Assembly (NCBI GenBank): GCA_963772455.1
Contig: CAVYXJ010000011.1
Span: forward strand, 86,775-150,774
DNA length: 64,000 bases
Source: Candidatus Bathyarchaeota archaeon
Lineage (GTDB): Archaea; Thermoproteota; Bathyarchaeia; Bathyarchaeales; Bathycorpusculaceae
Direction of reading: 5' to 3'
Shown here in pieces: positions 9,099-62,921 of the stretch. Under the pieces are notes generated by a model that was given only the letters and a program-made list of their open reading frames with translations, was not told the DNA's origin and did not search any database. A program made the translations under genes and the position numbers. How positions within the stretch are numbered: position 1 is the first letter of the stretch; each line of letters begins with the position of its first letter.

Positions 9099-9560
9099 GT
9101 TATCTTGACCCTTTTCGGTTGTATAGCAGGATACTTGATTAAAAAGTCTATTGCACATACTTAATACTGGTAAGTTCTTTCTTCAAAAGCATCTTCAACG
9201 TATCACTGTTAAGCTGGCTACTCAAGCGTTGCTTATGAGATAGACGCAGCCGTTCTTTGTGCTCTAGATCTATTTTTCTGGCAAGTGCAGAGTCAACTTT
9301 TCCACAAACCATCATTTACAGTCACGCCTGCCATAACCTCAACATTAACCAAAGAGCCGAATCTGGCAAACAAATCAACGAACCTAAACCCCAATATGAA
9401 CGACAAACCGATTCAGATTTTATTGGCGCTAACGCATGGCATGACAACTCAAATGATGAAATTTCATTCAAGAAAATATCATTACAAAACCGATTGAAAG
9501 CAGAATTTGACCGAACAGAATAGGCAAATCTTTTAAGTAAATTAACATCATAAAAGCAAA

Positions 9561-9893
9561 ATGGCGATTGAAATTTCAGGGTTAGGTTTCAACTTATTTG
9601 GCGGTAAAAAAGCGAAGAAACAAAAGAAAAGAACCCAATTAGCAAAAAATCAAGCAACTGGTTTAGGCGTTCAAAGATTACATGAAATCGGTTATGCTAT
9701 GCAAGGTTTCAATGTTACAAGGAAAAAAACTGGATGTGATTTTGAAGCAACAAGGCAAAATCCTTATACTGGAAAAAAAGAACACCTGTTTGTTGAATCC
9801 AAAAGTAGTTCAACTGCAACAGTTAGACCGCTACAGAAAAAAATGCAGAAAAAGAAAAGAAAAAATTATAAAATAGAACGTGGGCTTCTTTAA
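9561..9893 (+). CDS. Small basic PD-(D/E)XK nuclease-like protein
   Basis: E..Y..QGFNV.R...GCDFEATR...LFVESKS, i.e. the E...D...ExK pattern of Hjc/DUF3883-like nucleases. Confidence 0.6.
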   Translation: MAIEISGLGFNLFGGKKAKKQKKRTQLAKNQATGLGVQRLHEIGYAMQGFNVTRKKTGCDFEATRQNPYTGKKEHLFVESKSSSTATVRPLQKKMQKKKRKNYKIERGLL

Positions 9894-10210
9894 CTCAAAT
9901 TAACAACTAAATTAAGTTATTGCGTAACTGCCATTAAACACTACTCTTGTTTTGTGCGATTTAACTTAACTTTATCAAGGAATTGTTTAGCGGCTCGTTT
10001 GTGTTATCTAAATCTGAAAGAAACCAAAGAGCAGATGAAGTTTAAGCGAATACCTCAACTCATCAACAACGTGATTTCTTTCTTTGACTTCGACATGGTA
10101 CTCTCAAAGTTCCGATACTATATTTATGCAGAGAGGCGAATAAACAATCCAAGCTTTTTTGAATAAACATTTATGAGTGTTTGTGTTAAAATCTTTAGAA
10201 GGAACATTTA

Positions 10211-10774
10211 ATGTCCGAGCAAATAAGAAGCTTCATCGCTTTCGACCTCAAAAATGATAACGTATTGAATAGAATAAATGCAGCGCAAAAACTGTTAATG
10301 CAAACAAATGCAGACCTTAAAATGGTTGAGCCATCCAACATCCATATCACATTACGATTTCTAGGTGGAATTAGCCCAGAGATGGTTGATAAAGTTCATG
10401 CTGCCATGAAGAACGTCAAGTTCATTCCCTTTAACGTTCAACTCAGAGGTTTAGGAGTTTTTCCAACACTTAATTATCCACGGGTTGTTTGGGCTGGAAT
10501 AACCGATGGGGCAGAACAATTAAAAAGCATCTTTGAACAACTTGAACCCCAAATCCATGAGTTAGGCTTTGCGCCAGACCCTAACGGTTTTAGCCCACAT
10601 TTAACGATTGCACGCGTTAGGACGGGAGCAAACAAACAGCGCTTAATTGATTTGGTAACTAAACAAGCTAATTATGAATTTGGAAACATAAGAGCAGATT
10701 GTTTAAGGCTTAAAAAAAGTCAGCTTTCACCTAAAGGTCCAACTTACTCTACGCTCAAAGAATACTGCCCCTAA
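10211..10774 (+). CDS. thpR: RNA 2',3'-cyclic phosphodiesterase (2H family, LigT/ThpR)
   Basis: RSFIA, HITLRFLG, PRVVWAG and FSPHLTIAR; two HxT motifs. Confidence 0.93.
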   Translation: MSEQIRSFIAFDLKNDNVLNRINAAQKLLMQTNADLKMVEPSNIHITLRFLGGISPEMVDKVHAAMKNVKFIPFNVQLRGLGVFPTLNYPRVVWAGITDGAEQLKSIFEQLEPQIHELGFAPDPNGFSPHLTIARVRTGANKQRLIDLVTKQANYEFGNIRADCLRLKKSQLSPKGPTYSTLKEYCP

Positions 10775-10784
10775 ATGATAAGCC

Positions 10785-12209
10785 ATGGAAAACGAATTAA
10801 ATGCGTTGTCTAAGCGAATCCTCGAAAAGATCACGCCTAAAAAAGAGGAATACGCCAAAATTGACGCTTTAAGTCGCGAACTTGAACAGAAAATTTTGTT
10901 TGCATGCAAACAAGAAGGTGTAGAGGCAAAAGTGCGGGTTGAAGGTTCCGTTGCCAAGGATACATGGTTGAGTGAAAATCCCGATATCGACATTTTTATG
11001 CGTTTGCCAACCTCGATTCCAAGAAAAAACCTGGGCGATATCGGGTTAAAAATTGCGAAAAAAGCTGCTGGCACCGCAGAGCAGTTGGAACGTTTTGCTG
11101 AGCATCCTTACCTTGAAATTTTCCTTGACGGTTACCGCGTCGACATTGTACCTTGTTATGATGCTAAACCAGGTGAATGGCAAAGCGCAACTGATCGAAC
11201 GCCCTATCACACAGATTACATCAACAACCATTTGAACAAAGTAGCACGTGCTGAAGTTCGGCTATTAAAAAGATTTATGCAGGGTATTGGCGTTTACGGT
11301 GCAGAGATCAAAATCGGCGGTTTTAGTGGTTACCTTTGCGAACTATTGATAATGAAGTATGGGACATTCGCTCAAACCATAATAGCCTTCGCAGAATATC
11401 ACGGGCGTATAATAATAGATCTTCAGGGCTTTTATGCAGAAAGAGAAAACGAGCTAAAGTTGCTTTTTCCTGAGCCACTTGTTATCATTGACCCAGTTGA
11501 TAAAGGAAGAAATGTCGCTTCAGCAGTGCAACCTCCAAAATTGTACATATTTGTTGGTGCAGCAAGAGCGTTTTTGAAAAAGCCAACTGAAGAATTTTTT
11601 TATCCAGCTAAACCACAGGTTTTATCTTCAGACGTATTGAAGAGGCAGATTGAAAAACGTGGGTCATCCCTCGTATTTTTGATAATTGGAGAGTTAAATG
11701 CTGTCCCAGACGTACTTTGGGGACAACTGTATAGATCAAAACGTTCTCTGCGAACGCTCCTTGAATTAGGCGATTACAAGATTTTAAAAGATGCAATTTG
11801 GAGCAACGAGAAAACCCTCAGTATATTCATCTTTGAACTTGAAGCACAAGTTTTACCCAACATCAAGAAACATCTTGGTCCCCCGCTTGAACGGGAAACT
11901 GAATGTGAAAAGTACCTCAACAAATATAGTTGCAATGAAAGCGTGATTTCTGGACCCTACATTGAAGATGGACGCTGGATAGTCGAATTACCGCGCAAAA
12001 CAACTGATGCAGTTGCATTGTTGAAAGAAAAGTTGTTGGATGGAGGTAAAAACGCTGGTATTGCTGATTTAATTTCAAAAACAATGCAGAAAAACCTCAG
12101 AGTAGCTGTTGGCAATGAAGTGCAAGCAGTCTATGAAGGGAATAATGATTTTGCAGAGTTCTTGACAGATTTTCTTTCCGGTAAACCTTTTTGGCTAAAA
12201 ATCTTGTAA
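10785..12209 (+). CDS. cca: Archaeal class I CCA-adding enzyme
   Basis: GSVAKDTWL..DIDIF, AEHPY, SATDRTPYH, GFSGYLCELL, DPVD..RNVA motifs. Confidence 0.96.
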   Translation: MENELNALSKRILEKITPKKEEYAKIDALSRELEQKILFACKQEGVEAKVRVEGSVAKDTWLSENPDIDIFMRLPTSIPRKNLGDIGLKIAKKAAGTAEQLERFAEHPYLEIFLDGYRVDIVPCYDAKPGEWQSATDRTPYHTDYINNHLNKVARAEVRLLKRFMQGIGVYGAEIKIGGFSGYLCELLIMKYGTFAQTIIAFAEYHGRIIIDLQGFYAERENELKLLFPEPLVIIDPVDKGRNVASAVQPPKLYIFVGAARAFLKKPTEEFFYPAKPQVLSSDVLKRQIEKRGSSLVFLIIGELNAVPDVLWGQLYRSKRSLRTLLELGDYKILKDAIWSNEKTLSIFIFELEAQVLPNIKKHLGPPLERETECEKYLNKYSCNESVISGPYIEDGRWIVELPRKTTDAVALLKEKLLDGGKNAGIADLISKTMQKNLRVAVGNEVQAVYEGNNDFAEFLTDFLSGKPFWLKIL

Positions 12210-13497: not shown

Positions 13498-13813
13498 AGA
13501 TTAGCTATATTATTCTTGCGCTAGCCAACTAAAGTTCGAGTCGACTTTGATCATCGATCTATGGTCTAATCGAAAAGAAATTAAAGATTTTTTTGTTTTT
13601 CTAAGATATTTGCAAATATTCGAAGTTAACCAATCTAGCGACAAACACAATTACCTATTATATCAAGAACCTAGGAGATACTTAATAATTTTGAATAGGG
13701 ATTTGCACCAGAAAAGTATAGAAAAGAAAATAAAAACTGTAATTATTTGTACTTTTAATCGCCAAATATTTATATTAAAAAGCAACCATCAAGCCAACAG
13801 ACCAGTGAAAGTT

Positions 13814-14446
13814 ATGTCACAAAAAGAAGCCGAAAAATACCAATTTCTAGTTAAATTAGCCCTCGAAAACGGTGCTACAGACGCCAAAATAATTCCAACA
13901 AGCAAAGTCGTCATCGAAGATCGAGTGGTACTAAAATGTAAAGTCGGTTGCAACCACTACGGCAAAACCCTCGCCTGCCCACCCTACACACCTTCAGCTG
14001 AGGAATTCCGCAAAATAGTCAGCGAATATGGTTACGCCATGTTTATGAAATTCGCTTCAAATGCGCAAGCTGAACCAGAGGTTTTAGCTAAGTTAATGGT
14101 TGCAGAAACAGATCCATCAGTTTCAAAAGAAATCAAGGAGAAAGCAGCAAAGTTCTGGAAAGACTGGAAAGACGACAAACGCAAAATGCTTCAGAGCGTT
14201 GTTGATTTGGAAAAAGCTGCAATGAACAAAGGTTACAGTTTAGCAATATCGTTTGTTTCGGGTCATTGTCAACTCTGCGAAAAATGCAATACAGAATCAA
14301 AAATTTGTGCTCATCCTAACTTGGCACGCTGGTCTGAAGACGCTGTTGGCGTCAATGTAAAGAAAACCGCGGCAAACGCTGGAATAACCGTTACTTTTCC
14401 GTTTGCAAAAAACCCTGAATCCTTCGCAATACTTCTAATCGATTAA
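13814..14446 (+). CDS. DUF2284 Cys-rich metal-binding protein
   Basis: KC..GC..YG....CPP and G.CQLCEKC......CAHP..AR.S..A.GVNV motifs; ATG 13814. Confidence 0.8.
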   Translation: MSQKEAEKYQFLVKLALENGATDAKIIPTSKVVIEDRVVLKCKVGCNHYGKTLACPPYTPSAEEFRKIVSEYGYAMFMKFASNAQAEPEVLAKLMVAETDPSVSKEIKEKAAKFWKDWKDDKRKMLQSVVDLEKAAMNKGYSLAISFVSGHCQLCEKCNTESKICAHPNLARWSEDAVGVNVKKTAANAGITVTFPFAKNPESFAILLID

Positions 14447-14939
14447 CTTCAGGAGAACAGGTAAAAATAAATAATTTAACCATTGGCAAAGAACATGAAT
14501 TTATTCATAATTTGTTATAATGAGTTATAGAGGATAAATACTGAAAGAAGCTATGATTAAGCTTAAGAAATAAGTAGTTAAAATAATAAAAAACATAAGA
14601 AACTTGCAACGAAACTATTTTGGACTTAATAATTTTAGCAGAAGCGTAAGATATTGGCAAATAAAACACTATATTTAAAAGATAACAATAATTCGTTAAA
14701 AGTAGAAGAAGTCCAAAAGTAGAAGAAAGCAAATTTTTCACTATTCTTCTTCTAACAAATACTTATTTTCGCCACAATCTAAAGTTTCTTCGAAAAAAAA
14801 TCTATCAAAACAAACCCAAAGTTTAAAGAAGAAAAGCATAAACTAAAATCGCAATGAAAAGCTGATAAACTTCATTTTATTCTGGTATTTCATCGTTAAA
14901 ATTAAAGTTGATTAATCAAAAAATCAAAGTATTGACTTT

Positions 14940-15482
14940 TTAGATGTTGATGTGCCTTAGATATTTGTTCCAAAGGTATGAAGCTGCGTATCCTGCTACG
15001 CCACCTGAGACTGGACCCATAAACAAGACCATTGCATCGAGCATTTGGCTTCTTTGAACAAACAAACTGACAAAAGAAAATCCGTTTAGGTATTGCGGGA
15101 AAATGGCAAACGCAGAGTAGCTGGAAACAGCTATCAACAATGTACTAATGGCCATGGCTACAATCAATCGGTTGCGGTTTACGCCTTGCTGTGAACCTTT
15201 GATTTTGAATAGTAATAAGAAAACATCAACGAAGACGCCAAAGAGGAAGGCAAAAAAGAATGTGAATGGACCTAAAGCTGGGCTAACGAGTGCAGTTAAG
15301 AGTCCTCCGACTGCTCCAACATACATGGCGCCTACTTTTGGAATGAATAGTCCGCTTACTGCGAGTAGAACTGCTTGGACAACTATGACTAGATAGTTTA
15401 GTGGGGGTGGCAAAAACACGTTTGTGACGAAAATTATTGTGCCGAAAAGGGCTACAATGAATAAACGTTGAATCTTCTGCAT
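14940..15482 (-). CDS. Polytopic membrane protein, ECF S-component-like
   Basis: About 180 aa with 5-6 TM helices; ALFG near the N-terminus; G.A.YVG.VGGLL motif. Confidence 0.55.
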   Translation of the reverse strand: MQKIQRLFIVALFGTIIFVTNVFLPPPLNYLVIVVQAVLLAVSGLFIPKVGAMYVGAVGGLLTALVSPALGPFTFFFAFLFGVFVDVFLLLFKIKGSQQGVNRNRLIVAMAISTLLIAVSSYSAFAIFPQYLNGFSFVSLFVQRSQMLDAMVLFMGPVSGGVAGYAASYLWNKYLRHINI

Positions 15483-15663
15483 CCATGTACCCCCGAATAG
15501 TATAGGAGTTCACGTTTCCTTCTAAAAAGCTTAATGTTAAAGTTGAAAAAAAGAAAAACTTGAGTAAAGATGTAATTTAATTTTAATGGAAAGTTATAAA
15601 TTGGCAAGATGCAATATTTGGTATTATATAATAATTAACTGATAAATGTAAAATTGGGGATAA

Positions 15664-16422
15664 TTGAAAATGAGCACTCACGCAGAAGATTTGAAGCTCC
15701 GACTAATGACAATTGAGCTTCTTCGAACGGCAAAATACAAACGGAACATTACTTACAGAGAATTAGCTACTAAAACTGGTTTACCAGTCACTGTGCTAAG
15801 CCGCTATGCAAAAGGTCATGTTTTGCCAAACACAGTAAGAGCAAAACAACTTTGGCGTGTGCTTACAAAACTTGTTGGATTAGAAGTAGAACTACGAAGC
15901 AGAATAAAATTTGACGATACAGGCTATTTTGATAACACAGAAATCGTAGGTGACTACAATATCCTCCAGCAAGCAGCAAATCATGCCTTAGCAAATTTCG
16001 CGGGTAAACGCGTTACTAAAATCTTAACTGCCGCCGTCGATGGCATACCCCTAGCTACAATGGTCGCAAACTCACTTGGAGTAAACCTCATCGTTGCCAA
16101 ACGCAACAAAGAAGTCGGAGTAAAAGCCTTCCTTGAAGAAACATACATTTTAGGGCGAGATTCAGGCGTAACCGTAACTCTTTATATCCCCAAAGAATCT
16201 ATCAAAAAACGAGACAGCGTCCTCGTAGTTGATGATATGATCAAGAGCGGCGAAACTCAAGAAGCTCTAGTTAACCTTGTTAAAAAGTCAAAAGCTGAGG
16301 TTTCAGGTATCTTCTCACTGATTGCTGTTGGAGAAGAATGGAAGAAACGGCTAAAATCAGGTGAAGACTCACCCGTTGAAGTTGTCACTCATTTGAAATC
16401 TCCCTTCGACACTTCATCTTAA
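15664..16422 (+). CDS. HTH-phosphoribosyltransferase fusion (PurR-like regulator/APRT)
   Basis: TYRELATKTGLPVTVLSRYAKGHVLP HTH; VLVVDDMIKSGET PRPP-binding loop. Confidence 0.85.
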   Translation: MKMSTHAEDLKLRLMTIELLRTAKYKRNITYRELATKTGLPVTVLSRYAKGHVLPNTVRAKQLWRVLTKLVGLEVELRSRIKFDDTGYFDNTEIVGDYNILQQAANHALANFAGKRVTKILTAAVDGIPLATMVANSLGVNLIVAKRNKEVGVKAFLEETYILGRDSGVTVTLYIPKESIKKRDSVLVVDDMIKSGETQEALVNLVKKSKAEVSGIFSLIAVGEEWKKRLKSGEDSPVEVVTHLKSPFDTSS

Positions 16423-30691: not shown

Positions 30692-31696
30692 ATGCCTTGC
30701 TCAGTAATTGTTGGTGCCTTCTGGGGAGACGAAGGTAAAGGAAAAATAATTTCATATTTAGCTCTTAAAGATAATCTCGATTTCTGTGTTCGAACTGGCT
30801 CAGTTAATGCAGCTCATACAGTTTGGTATGAAGGCAAAAAATATGCTCTACATATGGTTCCAGCAGCTTTTATTAATCCAAAAACTCGTTTGTTAATAGC
30901 TGCAGGGGCAAATGTTGATGTTAAAACGTTTTTTAGTGAAGTTGAACTTACTCAGGTTGCCTCAAATCGAATTGGGATAGATTTGAATGCTTCTATTATT
31001 GAGCAGAAACATGGTGATCAAGACAAAGCTAGTGCTGTTAACAAAGGAATAGGGACCACTGGTCGAGGTGTTGGACCTGCAATAGAAGAGCGTGTAAGAC
31101 GCACAGCAAAGTTGGCTAAAGATATTCCTGAATTAAAACCTTACTTGGCTGACCAAGTTATGGAAGTTAACGATGGGTTGGATGCTGGTAAAAGTGTTTT
31201 GCTTGAAGGTACACAAGGGTTTATGCTATCGCTTTTCTTGGGTGGTGGCTATCCATATGTGACTAGTAGGGATACTGGTGCATCAGCCATTGCTTCGGAA
31301 GCTGGTGTTGGACCAACTAGAGTTGATGATGTAATTATTGTTTACAAGTCTTTTATGACTCGAGTGGGCGCTGGACCGCTACCTGGCGAAATAACTAAGG
31401 AAGAAGCTTTGGAAAGGGGTTGGTTTGAAGTTGCCGCTGGAACAGGCCGCGATAGACGTTCTGCACCTTTTGACTTTGATTTAGCGAAAAAAACAGCTAA
31501 AATAAATGGAGCAACTCAGGGGGCAATGACAAAACTTGATTGTATTTATCCATCTTGTAGAAGTGCCCGAAAATATAGTGATTTGCCCAAGGAAGCTAAA
31601 GACTTCATAAAAGAGGTTGAAACCAGAACTGGTGTGCCTATAGTTTTTATTGGCACTGGACCAGATGCCTTAGATTTAATTGATCGTCGGGCATAG
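30692..31696 (+). CDS. purA: Adenylosuccinate synthetase (short archaeal form)
   Basis: WGDEGKGK, IGTTGRGVGPA, EGTQG, YPYVTS, TRVG.GP, TKLD motifs. Confidence 0.95.
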   Translation: MPCSVIVGAFWGDEGKGKIISYLALKDNLDFCVRTGSVNAAHTVWYEGKKYALHMVPAAFINPKTRLLIAAGANVDVKTFFSEVELTQVASNRIGIDLNASIIEQKHGDQDKASAVNKGIGTTGRGVGPAIEERVRRTAKLAKDIPELKPYLADQVMEVNDGLDAGKSVLLEGTQGFMLSLFLGGGYPYVTSRDTGASAIASEAGVGPTRVDDVIIVYKSFMTRVGAGPLPGEITKEEALERGWFEVAAGTGRDRRSAPFDFDLAKKTAKINGATQGAMTKLDCIYPSCRSARKYSDLPKEAKDFIKEVETRTGVPIVFIGTGPDALDLIDRRA

Positions 31697-31742
31697 CAAC
31701 TTTTATTTTCTTTATTGTTTATCCACATTCAAGGCAAAGTCC

Positions 31743-32880
31743 ATGTTTAGATTTAAAAATTGCACCAAAGCTTCTGCAAGCATACTGATTTTGCTTTTTG
31801 TTGCAGGATTGCTTGTTGGAGGATTACTCATATATTATGTATCTTACCGCCAAGTTTCTGGCTTGAATGGACAAATTACAAATCTGCAAACAGCAATCTC
31901 TAACTTGGAAGGTCACCAAAACTCCACTATTCAAAATATCTCTATATTTCAAAATGGAACTTCGCTTGCAGTTATCTATTCTAATCTTAAGGATTCTGTG
32001 GTTCTAGTTCAAGGCGATACTGCTGATGGAGGTGTGCAAGGTTCAGGTTTTGTTTATGATTTTGCGGGTCGAATGGTTGTGTTGACTAATTATCATGTTG
32101 TTCAGGATACAACTGATTTGAGTGTGACTTTTGCTAATGGCAATGGCTATTCTGCAACTGTTTTAGGAGATGATGCGTATTCAGATTTTGCAGTTCTTTC
32201 TGTTGATGCTCCCGCTTTCGAGTTTAAGCCGGTAACAATTGTCAGTTCAGCTTCGTTGCGTGTGGGTGAACCAGTCATCGCCATAGGAAATCCCTACGGG
32301 CTAGGTAGGCTCCTTAACTACAGGAGTTGTCAGTGCTACTGGAAGAACCATAAATGAAGATACAGCTGGTGGATACGCAATTGCAAACATCATTCAGACA
32401 AGTACTCCTATAAATCCTGGAAATTCAGGCGGTCCACTTTTAAATGCTGTTGGGAACGTTGTAGGAATCACTGCAGCGATTGTTTCTGATTCCCAGGGAC
32501 TTGGATTCGCGATTCCTTCAAACACGATTTTAAGAGAAATATCGGCTTTAGTTAGAACAGGTTCATACAATGGGCATTCATATTTGGGCGTCCTAGGAGA
32601 TGATATGAGTTTTAGTGTAGCAAAAGAAATGGGCTCAAACGTTACTTATGGGTGGAGAATTGTTACAGTTACAGCCTTGGGTCCCTCAGATGGTAAACTC
32701 GCTGTCAACGATATCATCATCGCTATGAATGGTCAAACTATTAAAAACAATGAAGACTTAGCTAGTTACTTAGAAGAAAACACTATTCCGGGAGATAAGC
32801 TTGTCTTGACTGTTGAGAGAGCAAAAGAGCAAATTCCCATCACTATAACTTTGGGAACACGTCCGGCAGCTTCCTCATAA
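31743..32880 (+). CDS. Membrane-anchored HtrA-like serine protease with PDZ domain (single frameshift)
   Basis: TNYHVV (His), SDFAVL (Asp), GNSGGPL (Ser, ~32419), C-terminal PDZ; one extra base near 32305. Confidence 0.88.
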
Positions 32881-39724: not shown

Positions 39725-40171
39725 GTGAAACGCTTATACCCTGACCAACCGGTTGTTGGCGTTGGCGCTGTAATAATCAAAGAAGGCAGTATAGCACTTA
39801 TAAAACGCGGAAACGAACCCAGCAAAGGCAAATGGACCATACCCGGCGGATTAGTTGAACTAGGCGAAAACCTCGAAGCTGCAGTCATTCGCGAGACAAA
39901 AGAAGAGGTATGCTTAGAAGTCGAAAACCCAACCTTGATGGGCGTTGTAGATAATGTAGATTTGGATGAGCAAGGCAAAGTAAAATACCACTACGTAATC
40001 ATCGACTACCTCGTTCAAGTCAAAACAGGAACTATCCAAGCTGCAAGTGATGCCGCCGAGCTACGTTGGGTTTCTTTTAGTGAAGTCGAAGATTATAATT
40101 TGACGGCTTCTTTTCGGGCTTTCTTTAAACAAAACAGGAAAAAATTAGAAAAGGCTAATTCTTATTGCTAA
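39725..40171 (+). CDS. NUDIX hydrolase
   Basis: Nudix box GG.VE.GE.LE.A..RE..EE. Confidence 0.9.
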   Translation: MKRLYPDQPVVGVGAVIIKEGSIALIKRGNEPSKGKWTIPGGLVELGENLEAAVIRETKEEVCLEVENPTLMGVVDNVDLDEQGKVKYHYVIIDYLVQVKTGTIQAASDAAELRWVSFSEVEDYNLTASFRAFFKQNRKKLEKANSYC

Positions 40172-40332
40172 AGAACGGACGTGTTTCTCCAAGTTTTTGA
40201 TATCGAAGGCTTCAATCGGGCAACTATGGGAAATCCTTGACAACTTTTCCCAAGCGTTAATCAGTGAATTGATGGCAAGTCTCGGAGGTGAACCAATAAG
40301 CACAAAAAAGACCGTCCACTAGAGGTTAAGTT

Positions 40333-41413
40333 ATGAGCCACTTCACTGTAAAGAGACCCGGAATATACGTAGAAGAAATAAGTTATCTGCCAAAGTCAAT
40401 CGAAGGTGTAAGTACAAGTACCGCGGCGTTTTTGGGGGAAACCGAAACGGGCCCAATTACGCCAACTCTTGTTACCAGTTGGATGATTACCAGAGGTTGT
40501 TCGGCGGATATCTTGGCGGAGACAAAGTATTTGCCTTATGCGGTTGAAGGCTTTTTTCTCAATGGTGGCAAACGATGTTACGTATGCAGAGGTTAACAAT
40601 TCGGATTATGCCGGGACTCTTGCGAAATTGGAAACGGTTGAGGATGTTTCAATTGTTTATTGTCCAAATGCTCAAGCTGTGCTTGGACTTGCGGATTTGT
40701 TGATCGAGCATTGTGAACGGTTAAGGTACCGGTTTGCTATTTTGGATTCGGTCAAAGGTCAGAACATTTCAAGCGTGACTAAGCCAAAGGAATCAGCCTT
40801 CGCGGCATTATACTACCCCTGGATTTACGTGAAACATGCTGGAACAGGACCTCATTGTCTAGTTCCGCCAGGCGGTCATGTTGCAGGAATCTATGCTCGA
40901 ACTGACCTTGAAATTGGCGTTAATAAAGCACCAGCAAATGAAGTCGTCAGAGGCGCAGTGGATATAGAGCATACAATTAGCAACAATCAACAGGACAACC
41001 TTGTCCTCCAAGGCATAAACTGTATCCGCAACTTTGTGGGCAGAGGCATACGTGTTTGGGGATCAAGAACCCTCTCCATGGAGCCAACAAAAAAGTATGT
41101 TAACGTTTGTAGACTGCTTATTTATCTTGAGCAATCTATCAAAAAAGGAACTGCTTGGGTAGTTTTTGAACCTAACAATGCTGCAACGTGGGTCAAAGTA
41201 AAAACAGCAATTGAGAATTTCCTAATGCTAACATGGAAAAACGGCTATTTAATGGGCGTTAACTCTCAAGAGGCTTACTTTGTTAAAATTGATCGAACAA
41301 CGATGAACCAATCCGATATTGACAATGGGCGTTTAATAGTGCTTATCGGTTTAGCTCTTTTAAAGCCGGCAGAATTCATCATTATAAGGATCAACCAAAC
41401 AACTATAGTTTAA
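40333..41413 (+). CDS. Contractile tail sheath protein (phage/eCIS type), three single-base indels in the 5' part
   Basis: PGIYVEE, TSTAAFLG, GFFLNGG.RCY, RFAILD, AALYYPW, PP.GHVAG.YARTD, KAPAN, GIN.IR.F.GRG..VWG.RT, RL..Y.E.SI, VFEPN, KPAEFI motifs; SD GAGGT; indels near 40485, 40525 and 40591. Confidence 0.9.
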
Positions 41414-41531
41414 ACTGAAATTATTTTGCAAAGTTTTTTTTTGCAAACACATGCGACCTTAGATCAGCAAGGTTTATGGTGTGTTTTATACATTGTAATT
41501 GTAGTTATTTTAGATCTTAATTTTAGTAGAG

Positions 41532-41976
41532 GTGAAAATTTTGCCAGATATTGTTGACGCTGCAATGGCATCGGGATGGTATAAACTTGTAGGGGCAGTA
41601 AAAGCTACAAGCCCAGTCGATACCTTGAAGGGTCCAGGTCCATTCACGGTTTTTAATCATACAGATAAGGCATTAAATAAAATTCCAAAAGCCGACATGG
41701 ACATGCTAATGAACACCCCCATGAAACTCGAGGAAGTCTTAACTTTCTATGTTTTTGAAACAAAAAATGAAGGCTGCAGATTTGAAGGAACATGAGTATT
41801 CGCAGGCGCTAATGGCGGAGAACTAAGAATAGACGTAAAAAATTGGCACATGCACAAGAACAAAAAGGTTAATGGAGCGAATATCATCAAACCCGATCTA
41901 ATTGTATCAAAGGAATTGCCATGCCCTAGACAAAGTGTTTATGCCTAAAAGGGCAGACATGAACCAAAAAATGTAG
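41532..41976 (+). pseudogene. Fasciclin (FAS1) domain gene, degraded
   Basis: DIVD.A, DTLKGPGPFTVF..TD.A, VNGANII..D, CHALDKV.MP spread across several frames; conserved FAPT changed to FNHT. Confidence 0.75.
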
Positions 41977-42037: not shown

Positions 42038-42499
42038 TTAGAGATATTGCTTTATTTTCTTAGTCATTATATCCAGCTGGGCTCTCTCAACTTCTCTGAG
42101 TTCGCTAAACGACGGCAGTTTTTGTCCTTCAAATCTTGGAACCACATGAACATGGATATGAAAAATATCTTGTCCTGCCGCTTTACCGTTCTGCTGAATT
42201 ATGCTAATGCCGTCTGCACCTGTAGCTTTTTTGATTGCATAGGATAATTTTTTTGCGATTTTATGAATATGAGTTAGCTCTTTTTCGGGTGTATCAAAGA
42301 TATCGATGTAGTGGACTTTGGGTATAACAAGTGAATGTCCAATGTTTAAAGGTCTTATATCAAGGAAAGCCATTACGGCTTGGTCCTCGTAGATAATGCT
42401 TGATTGCGCTTGTTTGTGAACTATTTTGCAGAAAATGCAGGATTCATCAAACGTCAAGTCAAACTCGCCTCTATATTTCAACTCACTTTTAAACATCAA
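42038..42499 (-). CDS. HIT family hydrolase
   Basis: CIFCKI, GHSLVIPK.H, AGQ.IFHIHVHVVPR motifs; start may be downstream. Confidence 0.93.
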   Translation of the reverse strand: MMFKSELKYRGEFDLTFDESCIFCKIVHKQAQSSIIYEDQAVMAFLDIRPLNIGHSLVIPKVHYIDIFDTPEKELTHIHKIAKKLSYAIKKATGADGISIIQQNGKAAGQDIFHIHVHVVPRFEGQKLPSFSELREVERAQLDIMTKKIKQYL

Positions 42500-62013: not shown

Positions 62014-62921
62014 GTGAAAAATATTGAGCTTCAAAAGGCACTTAAAGCAATTGGCTTAACTGAATATGAAGCCAAAGCATATATCAGCCTAATCCAAACA
62101 GGCACATCAAATGCAGGTAACCTCAGTAGACTTACTGAAATACCGCATTCGAAAATATACCGAAGTCCTCATTCGTCTAGAAAAGAAGAAATTAATAGAA
62201 GTTCAAGGGGGACGACCACTCTTCTTCAAAGCAATAAAACCCTCCATTGCCATAGACGGAGTGGAGACAGAACTAAAAGAAACTTTGCAGAACGAACTTT
62301 CTCAAAGAAAAAATGACTTAAGAAAACCGCTATGGGAAAAAAATAGGGCAAATAACCCAAGCGCATAACTTGCTTCGCGAATTGGATAATTTTTATGAGA
62401 AAAATGCCGCCATAGAACCCTCTGAAGAATTCATTTGGACAATTAAAGGAAAGGACAACTTGAATAGCCAAGCCAAAGAAATCATTCAAAGTGCATCGAC
62501 AGAGGCGCGGTTGATGATGCCGCTTGATGATTTCTCTGAATTAATATCAACAATTGAAATGGTGTCTTCAAGAGGCGTTAAGGTTCTTCTTGTGATTCAT
62601 GATCTTACCTATAGTGTGGAGAAGCTCAAAGGCTCAACTGAGATTTTCTACGATAGGTCGCCGTTGCCTACGAATTGCGGAATGATTTTGGCTGATGATA
62701 AGAGAGGTATGTTTATTTCAGAAAACTCTTCTATAGGATTTAGAGCATCTAGTAAGAGTGTCTTGATGGTTCTTGCTCAATTTTATCAGCATGAACTTGA
62801 GGAGTCAGCGAAAATATTCAACTCAGTTTATGATGGTTATCCATGTTTATGGGCGAGGTTTCCATCAGTTATGTGTGTTTTTAGTTCCCTTTTAATACGA
62901 ATTAAGAAAAAATTATCATAA
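62014..62921 (+). CDS. TrmB family transcriptional regulator, frameshifted
   Basis: GLTEYEAKAY..L, IP.SKIY.VL..LE.K.LIE...GRP, IWTIKG motifs; frame breaks near 62160 and 62330-62370. Confidence 0.85.

Follow-up and report, generated by a model that had tools for sequence, protein, structure and literature searches.

We analyzed a 64,000-nucleotide (nt) stretch of contig CAVYXJ010000011.1 from a Candidatus Bathyarchaeota archaeon (assembly GCA_963772455.1; hereafter, the window), in which positions 40333-41413 encode a one-domain contractile-sheath protein. Contractile injection systems (CIS) are usually regarded as indivisible gene clusters, and detection pipelines depend on that. On balance, we favor the reading that the window carries a conserved accessory gene for a minimal sheath, which came from a larger sheath of an extracellular contractile injection system (eCIS) and belongs to a dispersed, baseplate-less derivative of such a system. 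Across species with saturated synonymous sites, the sheath is intact, constant in length and under purifying selection at one site, and a baseplate, the part from which a sheath is ordinarily nucleated and triggered, was not found. Throughout, G000 denotes the present genome, G001 and so on the compared genomes, and X1, X2, X3 and X7 metagenome runs.

The sheath gene and its locus across the genus

The initial annotation had described a sheath gene at these positions that yields about 359 amino acids (aa) once three single-base insertions or deletions (indels) are corrected. Comparison of the window DNA with intact relatives located three frame changes, and bridging them, with X at two places, gave a product of exactly 359 aa, which is also the commonest length among family members. 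The indel sites proposed earlier (40485, 40525 and 40591) lie within a few bases of those listed here together with the gene and its two open reading frames (ORFs):

40333..41413, + strand: sheath gene, whole; 359 aa once the three frame changes are bridged
40333..40596, + strand: ORF A, N-terminal part of the sheath, 87 aa; residues 51-65 out of frame, end at TAA 40594-96
40538..41413, + strand: ORF B, 291 aa; in-frame sheath homology from about 40592 (VNNSDY...)
40483..40484, + strand: indel 1, one base missing relative to relatives (TGG ATT GAT), after the W codon at 40480-82
40527, + strand: indel 2, an extra G that restores the frame lost at indel 1
40588..40591, + strand: indel 3, one extra base in AGAG; frame shift, with TAA two codons on

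The window copy does not form a single uninterrupted frame. ORF B, which ends in LKPAEFIIIRINQTTIV (that is, LKPAEFIIIRI), matched Phage_sheath_1 (PF04984; 1.4e-22, 80.8 bits against a cut-off of 31.4) and Phage_sheath_1C (PF17482; 3.3e-13, 50 bits against a cut-off of 26.9) in a Pfam scan. ORF A, which gave no match in the same scan, starts with MSHFTVKRPGIYVEE and carries RPGIYVEE. Around the breaks, the protein of relatives reads ...TSW-x-DYQRxFGGYFGxxK-YLPYAVEGFFLNGGKRCYVC-x-VNxxDY.... Since indels 1 and 2 compensate each other, together they cause 15 codons to be misread as MITRGCSADILAETK with no stop; indel 3 shifts the frame, so that translation runs into the TAA at 40594-96. Programmed frameshifting was discarded as an explanation of this arrangement, since in close relatives the frame is simply open.

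A protein search returned more than 120 clusters with 55-82% identity to the sheath, most of them 357-361 aa long. Some sheath is present in 47 of 120 genomes of the genus and in none of 16 genomes from other genera of the order. Six genomes in an evenly drawn set of 301 from across the class had a sheath match, all from the same family, and the 252 genomes of other families in this set had none. When 43 sheath loci were compared, about 30 were found to sit between ABC-transporter/NUDIX genes on one side and fasciclin/HIT/Fe-S/ABC-2 genes on the other.

In a tree of 42 sheath sequences, from which the fragments G052 and G102 were excluded, the 29 full-length copies at the ABC-NUDIX / fasciclin-HIT locus (G000 included) form one clade with a support of 92 out of 100. 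Sheath lengths in this clade range from 357 to 365 aa, and the sequences nearest to it are five sheaths of 382-387 aa with an adjacent or nearby tube gene and the large eCIS sheaths of G098, G105 and G108. Of the 28 other full-locus copies, 27 have an intact frame; G102 too is short, with a 274-aa frame. Ratios of nonsynonymous to synonymous substitution (dN/dS, NG86 method) are 0.10-0.23 in the closest pairs, including 0.20 for G000 and its closest relative G125, whose sheaths are 75-77% identical; of the 406 pairs, the 138 with dS below 3 have a median of 0.125. The surroundings of PGIYVEE and KPAEFI are nearly invariant in an alignment of 36 sequences. By these measures, the sheath is syntenic, of single origin and under purifying selection in the 29-genome clade. 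The check proposed earlier, for solitary and syntenic homologues with dN/dS below 1, thus yielded 29 copies at one locus, and absence in relatives, one of the conditions named there for a decaying fragment, is not observed.

Origin of the frame breaks

The indels were compared with contigs from four metagenome runs, which come from different studies and from strains 90-95% alike; parts of the window that these contigs do not cover are uninformative. Contigs of X1 and X7 both have a T inserted behind 40483 and one base omitted at 40589. The X7 contig passes from GACAAA directly to TAT, so the G at 40527 is absent there, and a loose contig end from X3 has the same extra T as X1 and X7. Two further gaps in X7, at 40608 and 40616, compensate each other within 8 nt and leave the good frame of the window unaffected. 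X1, X7 and X3 represent three separate studies, and the three indels appear to be private to the G000 assembly because these contigs are without them.

Frame breaks are also common elsewhere in this assembly. When ORFs of G001 were compared with G000, 7 of 82 conserved genes fell into more than one frame, and with ORFs of G125 the count was 5 of 48, giving a frame-broken share of about 8-10% of conserved genes. The broken genes include those for fumarase, an Obg-like GTPase, an SdhA-like flavoprotein, undecaprenyl-diphosphate (UPP) synthase and glycerate kinase. It is improbable that a free-living cell could have lost every one of these genes, some of which are essential. Breaks are clustered in places, with two in about 90 nt at C5:17850-19222 and five broken genes in C12:117-135 kb (C numbers denote contigs). 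The G001 assembly has the same problem, with 17 of 104 rows in multiple frames, although some of these rows repeat a single gene or stem from paralogues. In long-contig metagenome assemblies from this group, roughly one in ten conserved genes has a frame break, so an apparent pseudogene needs read-level proof, and the G000 copy that drew attention to the family is itself compromised by assembly quality.

Three other split-looking genes were seen in G000. Two lie in the window, an HtrA-like gene with Trypsin_2 and PDZ_2 domains (31680-32877) and a gene with a TrmB helix-turn-helix and a Regulator_TrmB domain (62014-62918), and both fit the high frame-break rate of the assembly. The third encodes an NADH:flavin oxidoreductase of the Old Yellow Enzyme type on contig C21 (L003 (G000:C21) 9571-10393), lies about 3 kb from the tube-cap gene pair described below, and occupies two frames with two breaks relative to G125.

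The substitutions within the sheath point in the same direction. A relative-rate test counted 22-23 private amino-acid changes in the G000 sheath and 28-30 in that of its sister G125, and the corresponding branch lengths in the tree are 0.15 and 0.20; in its substitutions, the copy shows no relaxed constraint. The initial annotation had taken the intact motifs downstream of the indels as a sign of recent function, and the relative-rate test agrees with this.

The alternative is that the G000 sheath is a recently inactivated pseudogene, in which case the indels would be true mutations in a sheath-fasciclin pair under decay, and the gene would remain functional in sister species. Several observations on the window speak for this and against an intact copy. 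Of the indels found in about 12 kb, at least six, every one affects the sheath or the fasciclin gene; the seven flanking genes are free of them and single-frame relative to G125. The fasciclin gene has 21 private changes in G000 and 10 in G125, some of them in the FAPTDEAF motif, and the related strain in X2 joins 41448 to 41957, so that 41449-41956, with the fasciclin gene, are deleted. The excess of fasciclin substitutions together with the X2 deletion looks like real local decay. Beyond the locus, a small spike-PAAR-gp25 gene group of G125 is absent from G000, where its flanks are present at C7:89620-92057, and in-frame stops occur in CIS genes of the genus. None of the public runs contains the G000 strain, the best of them sharing 0.16 of the sampled words. 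Set against these points are the lack of any excess of private substitutions in the sheath, the frame breaks in 8-10% of conserved genes of the assembly, essential ones among them, and the intact tube and cap genes. The spacing of the breaks, with all three indels packed into 107 nt and the remaining 970 nt free of them, would also be an odd mutational pattern.

We therefore weigh the two origins as follows. Errors in the assembly consensus are a fairly probable source of the three sheath indels, and a real and recent inactivation is clearly the less probable one; the fuller scenario of a decaying sheath-fasciclin pair in G000 we regard as doubtful, if a serious contender. An assembly-error origin had not been among the options of the initial annotation and is the likelier reading. 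A recent relic, as proposed there, we reject for the family as a whole; at most, it could apply to the G000 copy. In the living organism, the window copy is probably intact.

Partner genes, related systems and possible function

G000 contains one sheath gene (contig C11), one tube gene and one gene for a Pvc16_N cap, at two loci on two contigs:

G000:C21:67865-68263, - strand: tube gene (PF06841, 1.3e-40)

The cap gene, which encodes a 191-aa Pvc16_N protein (PF14065, 1.1e-33), is the next gene after the tube on the same strand. This tube-cap pair is flanked by genes for OsmC and an LPG-synthase-like membrane protein, lies 4.8 kb from a contig end and is syntenic in G125, with 93% identity for the tube and 78% for the cap. 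No PADLOC model matched the sheath, the tube or the cap, NCBIfam had nothing for the sheath or the cap, and no solved structure is related to the cap by sequence. A 136-aa ORF 2 kb from the tube (L003 (G000:C21) 15434-15844, + strand) gave a sub-threshold match to TIR_2 (E 8.8e-5, 23.4 bits against a cut-off of 28).

Searches of G000 with Pfam profiles found no match for gp25 (PF04965) or Baseplate_J (PF04865) at E<=0.1, and none for the GPD hub (PF05954) or CIS_tube (PF19266). For PAAR nothing credible was found: the single stretch recovered, at C4:1056-1157, scored 16.6 bits (E 0.02), contains two stops and was treated as noise because the PAAR protein of G125 has no match there. The spike and PAAR sequences of G125, G098 and G108 likewise had no tblastn match in G000. 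When every ORF of the eCIS clusters of G098 and G108 was used as a tblastn query, matches came from three proteins alone: the tube encoded beside the sheath (71-72%), the cap (44-50%) and also the sheath, which is 61% identical to the eCIS sheaths over the first 78 residues and 52% over the last 280. The eCIS 335-aa protein had no match, and the WHD-AAA ATPase reached only general AAA genes, at 27-28%. Because sheath, tube and cap are the only parts that match the eCIS of the same genus, they form a coherent reduced derivative of that eCIS lineage. G000 thus has a sheath and a tube, on different contigs, and a Pvc16_N cap; we found no baseplate wedge, no spike, hub or PAAR tip, no tube initiator, tape measure or ATPase, and no single contiguous cluster.

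These results separate the possibilities raised by the initial annotation. A piece of a scattered archaeal CIS is supported in that sheath, tube and cap occupy two loci; a complete CIS was not recovered, nor were the baseplate families. A domesticated sheath likewise fits in part, given the synteny, monophyly and purifying selection. The genome-wide profile searches proposed there, for tube, gp25, baseplate J and VgrG/PAAR, yielded one tube, no gp25, Baseplate_J or GPD hub, and for PAAR the one stretch treated as noise. A complete eCIS elsewhere with its own sheath, another of the conditions named there for a decaying fragment, is not seen in G000, with its one sheath and no baseplate families.

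The same-genus eCIS clusters (G098:C7:318-338 kb and G108:C6:760-780 kb) encode a sheath, tube and cap that are 44-72% identical to those of G000. There, the genes stand close together in the order cap, a 212-aa gene, sheath, tube, whereas in G000 they are split over two loci, and the G000 sheath is without about 340-460 residues of inserted domains present in the eCIS sheaths (696-817 aa). By its Pfam content, the cluster of G098 is a canonical eCIS: in addition to a tube, a Pvc16_N protein and an 817-aa sheath, it contains a second tube, a CIS_tube+LysM protein, a GPD hub, an OB-fold spike, gp25, two Baseplate_J proteins, a PA14 fibre-like protein and a WHD-AAA ATPase, and for these additional genes of the same-genus eCIS G000 has no counterpart.

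Across the 120 genomes of the genus, a tube is present in 53, Pvc16_N in 42 and gp25 in 13; sheath and tube occur together in 40 genomes and both are lacking in 60 (raw counts, uncorrected for kinship). The 29 sheath-clade genomes include 25 with a tube and one, G125, with gp25. The single-contig genomes G014, G069 and G085 have a sheath and a tube and no gp25, and a distance of 506 kb separates sheath from tube in G014, a closed genome. The small tube gene pairs are of two kinds, tube with Pvc16_N (type A; G000, G125 and G008) and tube with CIS_tube (type B; G001 and G014). Type B tubes share 28% identity with type A and 58-70% with those of a second eCIS lineage, whose sheaths measure 570-708 aa. 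In the type B pairs of G001 (L033 (G001:C6) 10927-12134) and G014 (L034 (G014) 9295-10559), a tube of 165 aa is followed by a CIS_tube-domain protein of 229-255 aa, in unrelated housekeeping contexts.

Other arrangements were also observed in the genus. G012 has a sheath (382 aa)-tube operon (L015 (G012:C13) 9101-10698, - strand) set among genes for four large surface proteins with PQQ-propeller/Ig domains; no gene for a baseplate lies within 20 kb, and a second tube, of type B, is on another contig. The gene group of G125 mentioned above (L077 (G125:C13) 13642-14957, - strand) encodes an OB-fold spike (206 aa), a PAAR protein (96 aa) and gp25 (123 aa), with no sheath or tube nearby. Judged by frame length, and for G128 by sequence comparison, G128, G120, G055, G007 and G015 have an apparent type B tube without a sheath. 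A separate Pvc16_N family with frames of about 290-320 aa occurs in genomes without sheath and tube (for example, G016, G013 and G073). Tube or cap matches with several in-frame stops were found at G052:C9:16466-17403, G105:C9:40473-40865 and G124:C54:47852-48253 and in G117, which suggests that CIS-derived genes are truly decaying in some species. Judged by gene content, complete eCIS clusters coexist in the genus with small fragments that are conserved and with pieces in decay.

Comparison with known systems used the intact G125 ortholog as the query. Among solved sheaths, it matched 9ezm_A (2e-114), 8bky_A (2e-95) and Pvc2 (6e-55). The closest solved relatives by sequence are the sheaths of the haloarchaeal CIS (9EZM) and of the Streptomyces cytoplasmic CIS (8BKY/8BL4); at 534-574 aa, 9EZM and 8BKY have an extra domain and match the ortholog in two stretches. 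The haloarchaeal and Streptomyces sheaths work within full gene clusters with a baseplate. Pvc2 (6J0B) and Afp2 (6RAO), at 355 and 354 aa, have the size and one-domain architecture of the G000 sheath and are collinear with it; residues 7-356 of the 359 in the ortholog align end to end with residues 6-351 of the 355 in Pvc2, both arms included. The Pvc2 and Afp2 genes adjoin the tube and further sheath paralogues in a 16-gene operon. Polymerization of sheath without a baseplate is familiar from T4 gp18 polysheath and TssBC tubules, polysheaths being by-products of assembly. The orphan Hcp/VgrG islands of type VI secretion systems show that CIS parts can be encoded away from a main cluster; such orphans accompany a complete main cluster, whereas none was found in G000. 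Thus the parts are ordinary eCIS proteins, and the dispersed, baseplate-less and conserved arrangement is what is unusual.

According to its data statement, the haloarchaeal CIS paper (Sci Adv 2024, PMC11566945) is the source of 9EZM. In the full-text literature, nothing was found that joins Bathyarchaeia with contractile injection, and Bathyarchaeota together with tail sheath led to one 2022 survey; searches for a domesticated sheath and tube without a baseplate returned irrelevant papers only. The 2022 survey, in the parts consulted, reports sheath homologues in Bathyarchaeota assemblies, models a one-domain protein of 321 aa and raises a prophage origin or a binning error; those parts contain no genomic context, synteny, partners or selection.

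Under the reading that we favor, of a minimal accessory sheath in a dispersed, baseplate-less eCIS derivative, the sheath of about 359 aa would have descended from a 696-817-aa eCIS sheath like those of sister species through loss of the inserted surface domains. The gene would be transcribed on its own from a constant position among housekeeping genes, in the order ABC transporter-NUDIX / sheath / fasciclin-HIT. The protein may polymerize through its N- and C-terminal arms, around PGIYVEE and KPAEFI, and the sheath, or the sheath on a type A tube closed by the cap, may form a filament in G000. Such a polymer would be a static or spontaneously contracted tubule; with no baseplate and spike, it cannot be a triggered injector. 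The filament could have a structural role or interfere with the assembly of foreign tails. An AlphaFold2 (AF2) model of the monomer had a pLDDT of 62.9, with both arms below 50, a weak result that bears neither way on polymerization. A narrower claim, which we put forward tentatively and with distinctly less assurance, is that this derivative is selected in about a quarter of the species of one soil/peat genus for something other than injection. In that case, a minimal sheath at a fixed locus, together with a tube and its cap (or tube initiator) at another locus, could act as an autonomous sheath or sheath-tube filament or as a decoy against the assembly of foreign contractile tails.

A number of observations weigh against this reading. 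The sheath is accessory, with 73 of 120 genomes of the genus lacking any sheath, and the sheath-less G128, G003, G016 and G058 keep the locus without a remnant of the gene; in G058, NUDIX directly adjoins fasciclin. By raw counts uncorrected for kinship, 13 genomes have a tube without a sheath and seven a sheath without a tube. Pvc16_N is present in only 12 of the 29 sheath-clade genomes, and about 14 of the 29 carry a type B tube with CIS_tube instead, so that roughly half of the genomes that keep the sheath are without the cognate tube and cap, which weakens any claim that the three proteins cooperate. Some tubes in the genus have in-frame stops, which means that decay does occur. Finally, G000 is 92.4% complete, and a baseplate locus could sit in the missing part.

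Another explanation is that the sheath belongs to a complete and working CIS whose baseplate and spike are in the unassembled 8% or too divergent to be recognized. The assembly is in 24 contigs, the tube-cap pair is close to a contig end, and the separate spike-PAAR-gp25 group of the sister G125 is on a third contig, which indicates that CIS genes can be dispersed in the genus. Yet the Pfam searches for gp25, Baseplate_J, GPD and CIS_tube were negative, the tblastn queries from two whole same-genus eCIS clusters recovered sheath, tube and cap alone, the flanks of the G125 group are contiguous in G000 with the group absent, and 28 of the 29 sheath-clade genomes, three single-contig ones among them, have no gp25. 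We consider a complete system in G000 very improbable.

A further explanation is that the solitary sheath and the loose tubes are host decoys, which would co-assemble with the tail proteins of myoviruses or eCIS and poison their assembly. Its support is indirect: the patchy distribution within the genus, the independence of the gene from any baseplate, and the retention of tubes from two eCIS lineages as small pairs. The sheath also evolves faster than its flanks, with an amino-acid difference to G125 of about 24% compared with 3-11% for the ABC and NUDIX genes, and the gap between NUDIX and sheath is variable, with a HerA-like ATPase module in many relatives that gives weak matches to defence HerA. 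Against a decoy function, PADLOC recognized none of the three proteins, dN/dS values of 0.1-0.2 give no sign of an arms race, and the locus is otherwise housekeeping. As an account of the sheath in its own right, we hold this to be very unlikely, marginally more so than a complete system. If the preferred reading of a dispersed, baseplate-less derivative is correct, exaptation can turn sheath and tube proteins to tasks other than injection, and Bathyarchaeia would supply a naturally minimal sheath, about 359 aa long, for studies of baseplate-independent assembly.

Genes and sequence elements around the sheath

The features that flank the sheath in the window are as follows:

39725..40171, + strand: NUDIX hydrolase gene, conserved upstream flank (Pfam scan, synteny)
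40292..40308, + strand: conserved 17-nt block ACCAATAAGCACAAAAA = ACCAATATGCACAAAAA, 41 nt upstream of the ATG
40322..40326, + strand: GAGGT, Shine-Dalgarno-like, 6 nt ahead of the ATG; putative role
41526..41973, + strand: fasciclin (FAS1) remnant, conserved downstream neighbor, with at least three frame changes (indels in 41747-41917)
42038..42499, - strand: HIT-family gene, conserved downstream flank (Pfam scan, synteny)

An Fe-S assembly protein gene comes after HIT. The flanks named in the initial annotation, NUDIX upstream and a fasciclin remnant with HIT downstream, were recovered by the Pfam scan. So was its impression that the 64 kb hold no other tail or phage genes: all 69 non-nested ORFs of at least 80 aa were scanned (63 and 6 in two scans), and none matched a tube, baseplate, spike, capsid, terminase or integrase at E<=1e-5, the sole tube being on another contig. 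The window ORFs are archaeal housekeeping genes, including those for HMG-CoA reductase, the CCA-adding enzyme, tRNA-splicing endonuclease, HisRS, glutamine synthetase and NadA. Of the genes expected close to the sheath of a myovirus prophage (capsid, terminase, portal or integrase), the 64-kb window has none, no genome-wide search for capsid or terminase having been made.

With up to two mismatches, the 17-nt block is present at 20 of the 29 orthologous loci and is kept both where a further gene precedes it and where none does. Its distance to the ATG is 39-41 nt at 19 of these 20 loci and 31 nt in G002, where the start was set differently. In the G000 genome it occurs at a single site with at most one mismatch, and it is possibly a promoter or leader element. 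A regulatory motif common to the sheath and tube promoters was considered and rejected, as the block is not found upstream of the tube; a loose resemblance between GCACAAAAAAGACC and GGCAAAAAAACCT, and AGAGGTTAA ahead of the ATGs of both sheath and tube, were dropped since they are not kept in G125.

The fasciclin gene is the same-strand neighbor of the sheath in most relatives and lies 111-118 nt downstream of it in G000 and G125. Between NUDIX and sheath, G125 (L050, G125:C22, 2690-5721) and at least ten other relatives have a three-gene module, the products of which are a HerA-like ATPase (DUF87), its partner of 359 aa and a small protein whose C-terminus is winged-helix-turn-helix (wHTH)-like. 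The wHTH-like ORF was rejected as a partner of the sheath because it is linked to the HerA/NurA-like pair and is present in G003 and G016, which have the module and no sheath. The HerA-like protein gave weak PADLOC matches (mad8, 1.2e-15). G000 is without the module, and a 41-aa ORF at 40197-40322 of the window may be a leftover of its last gene.

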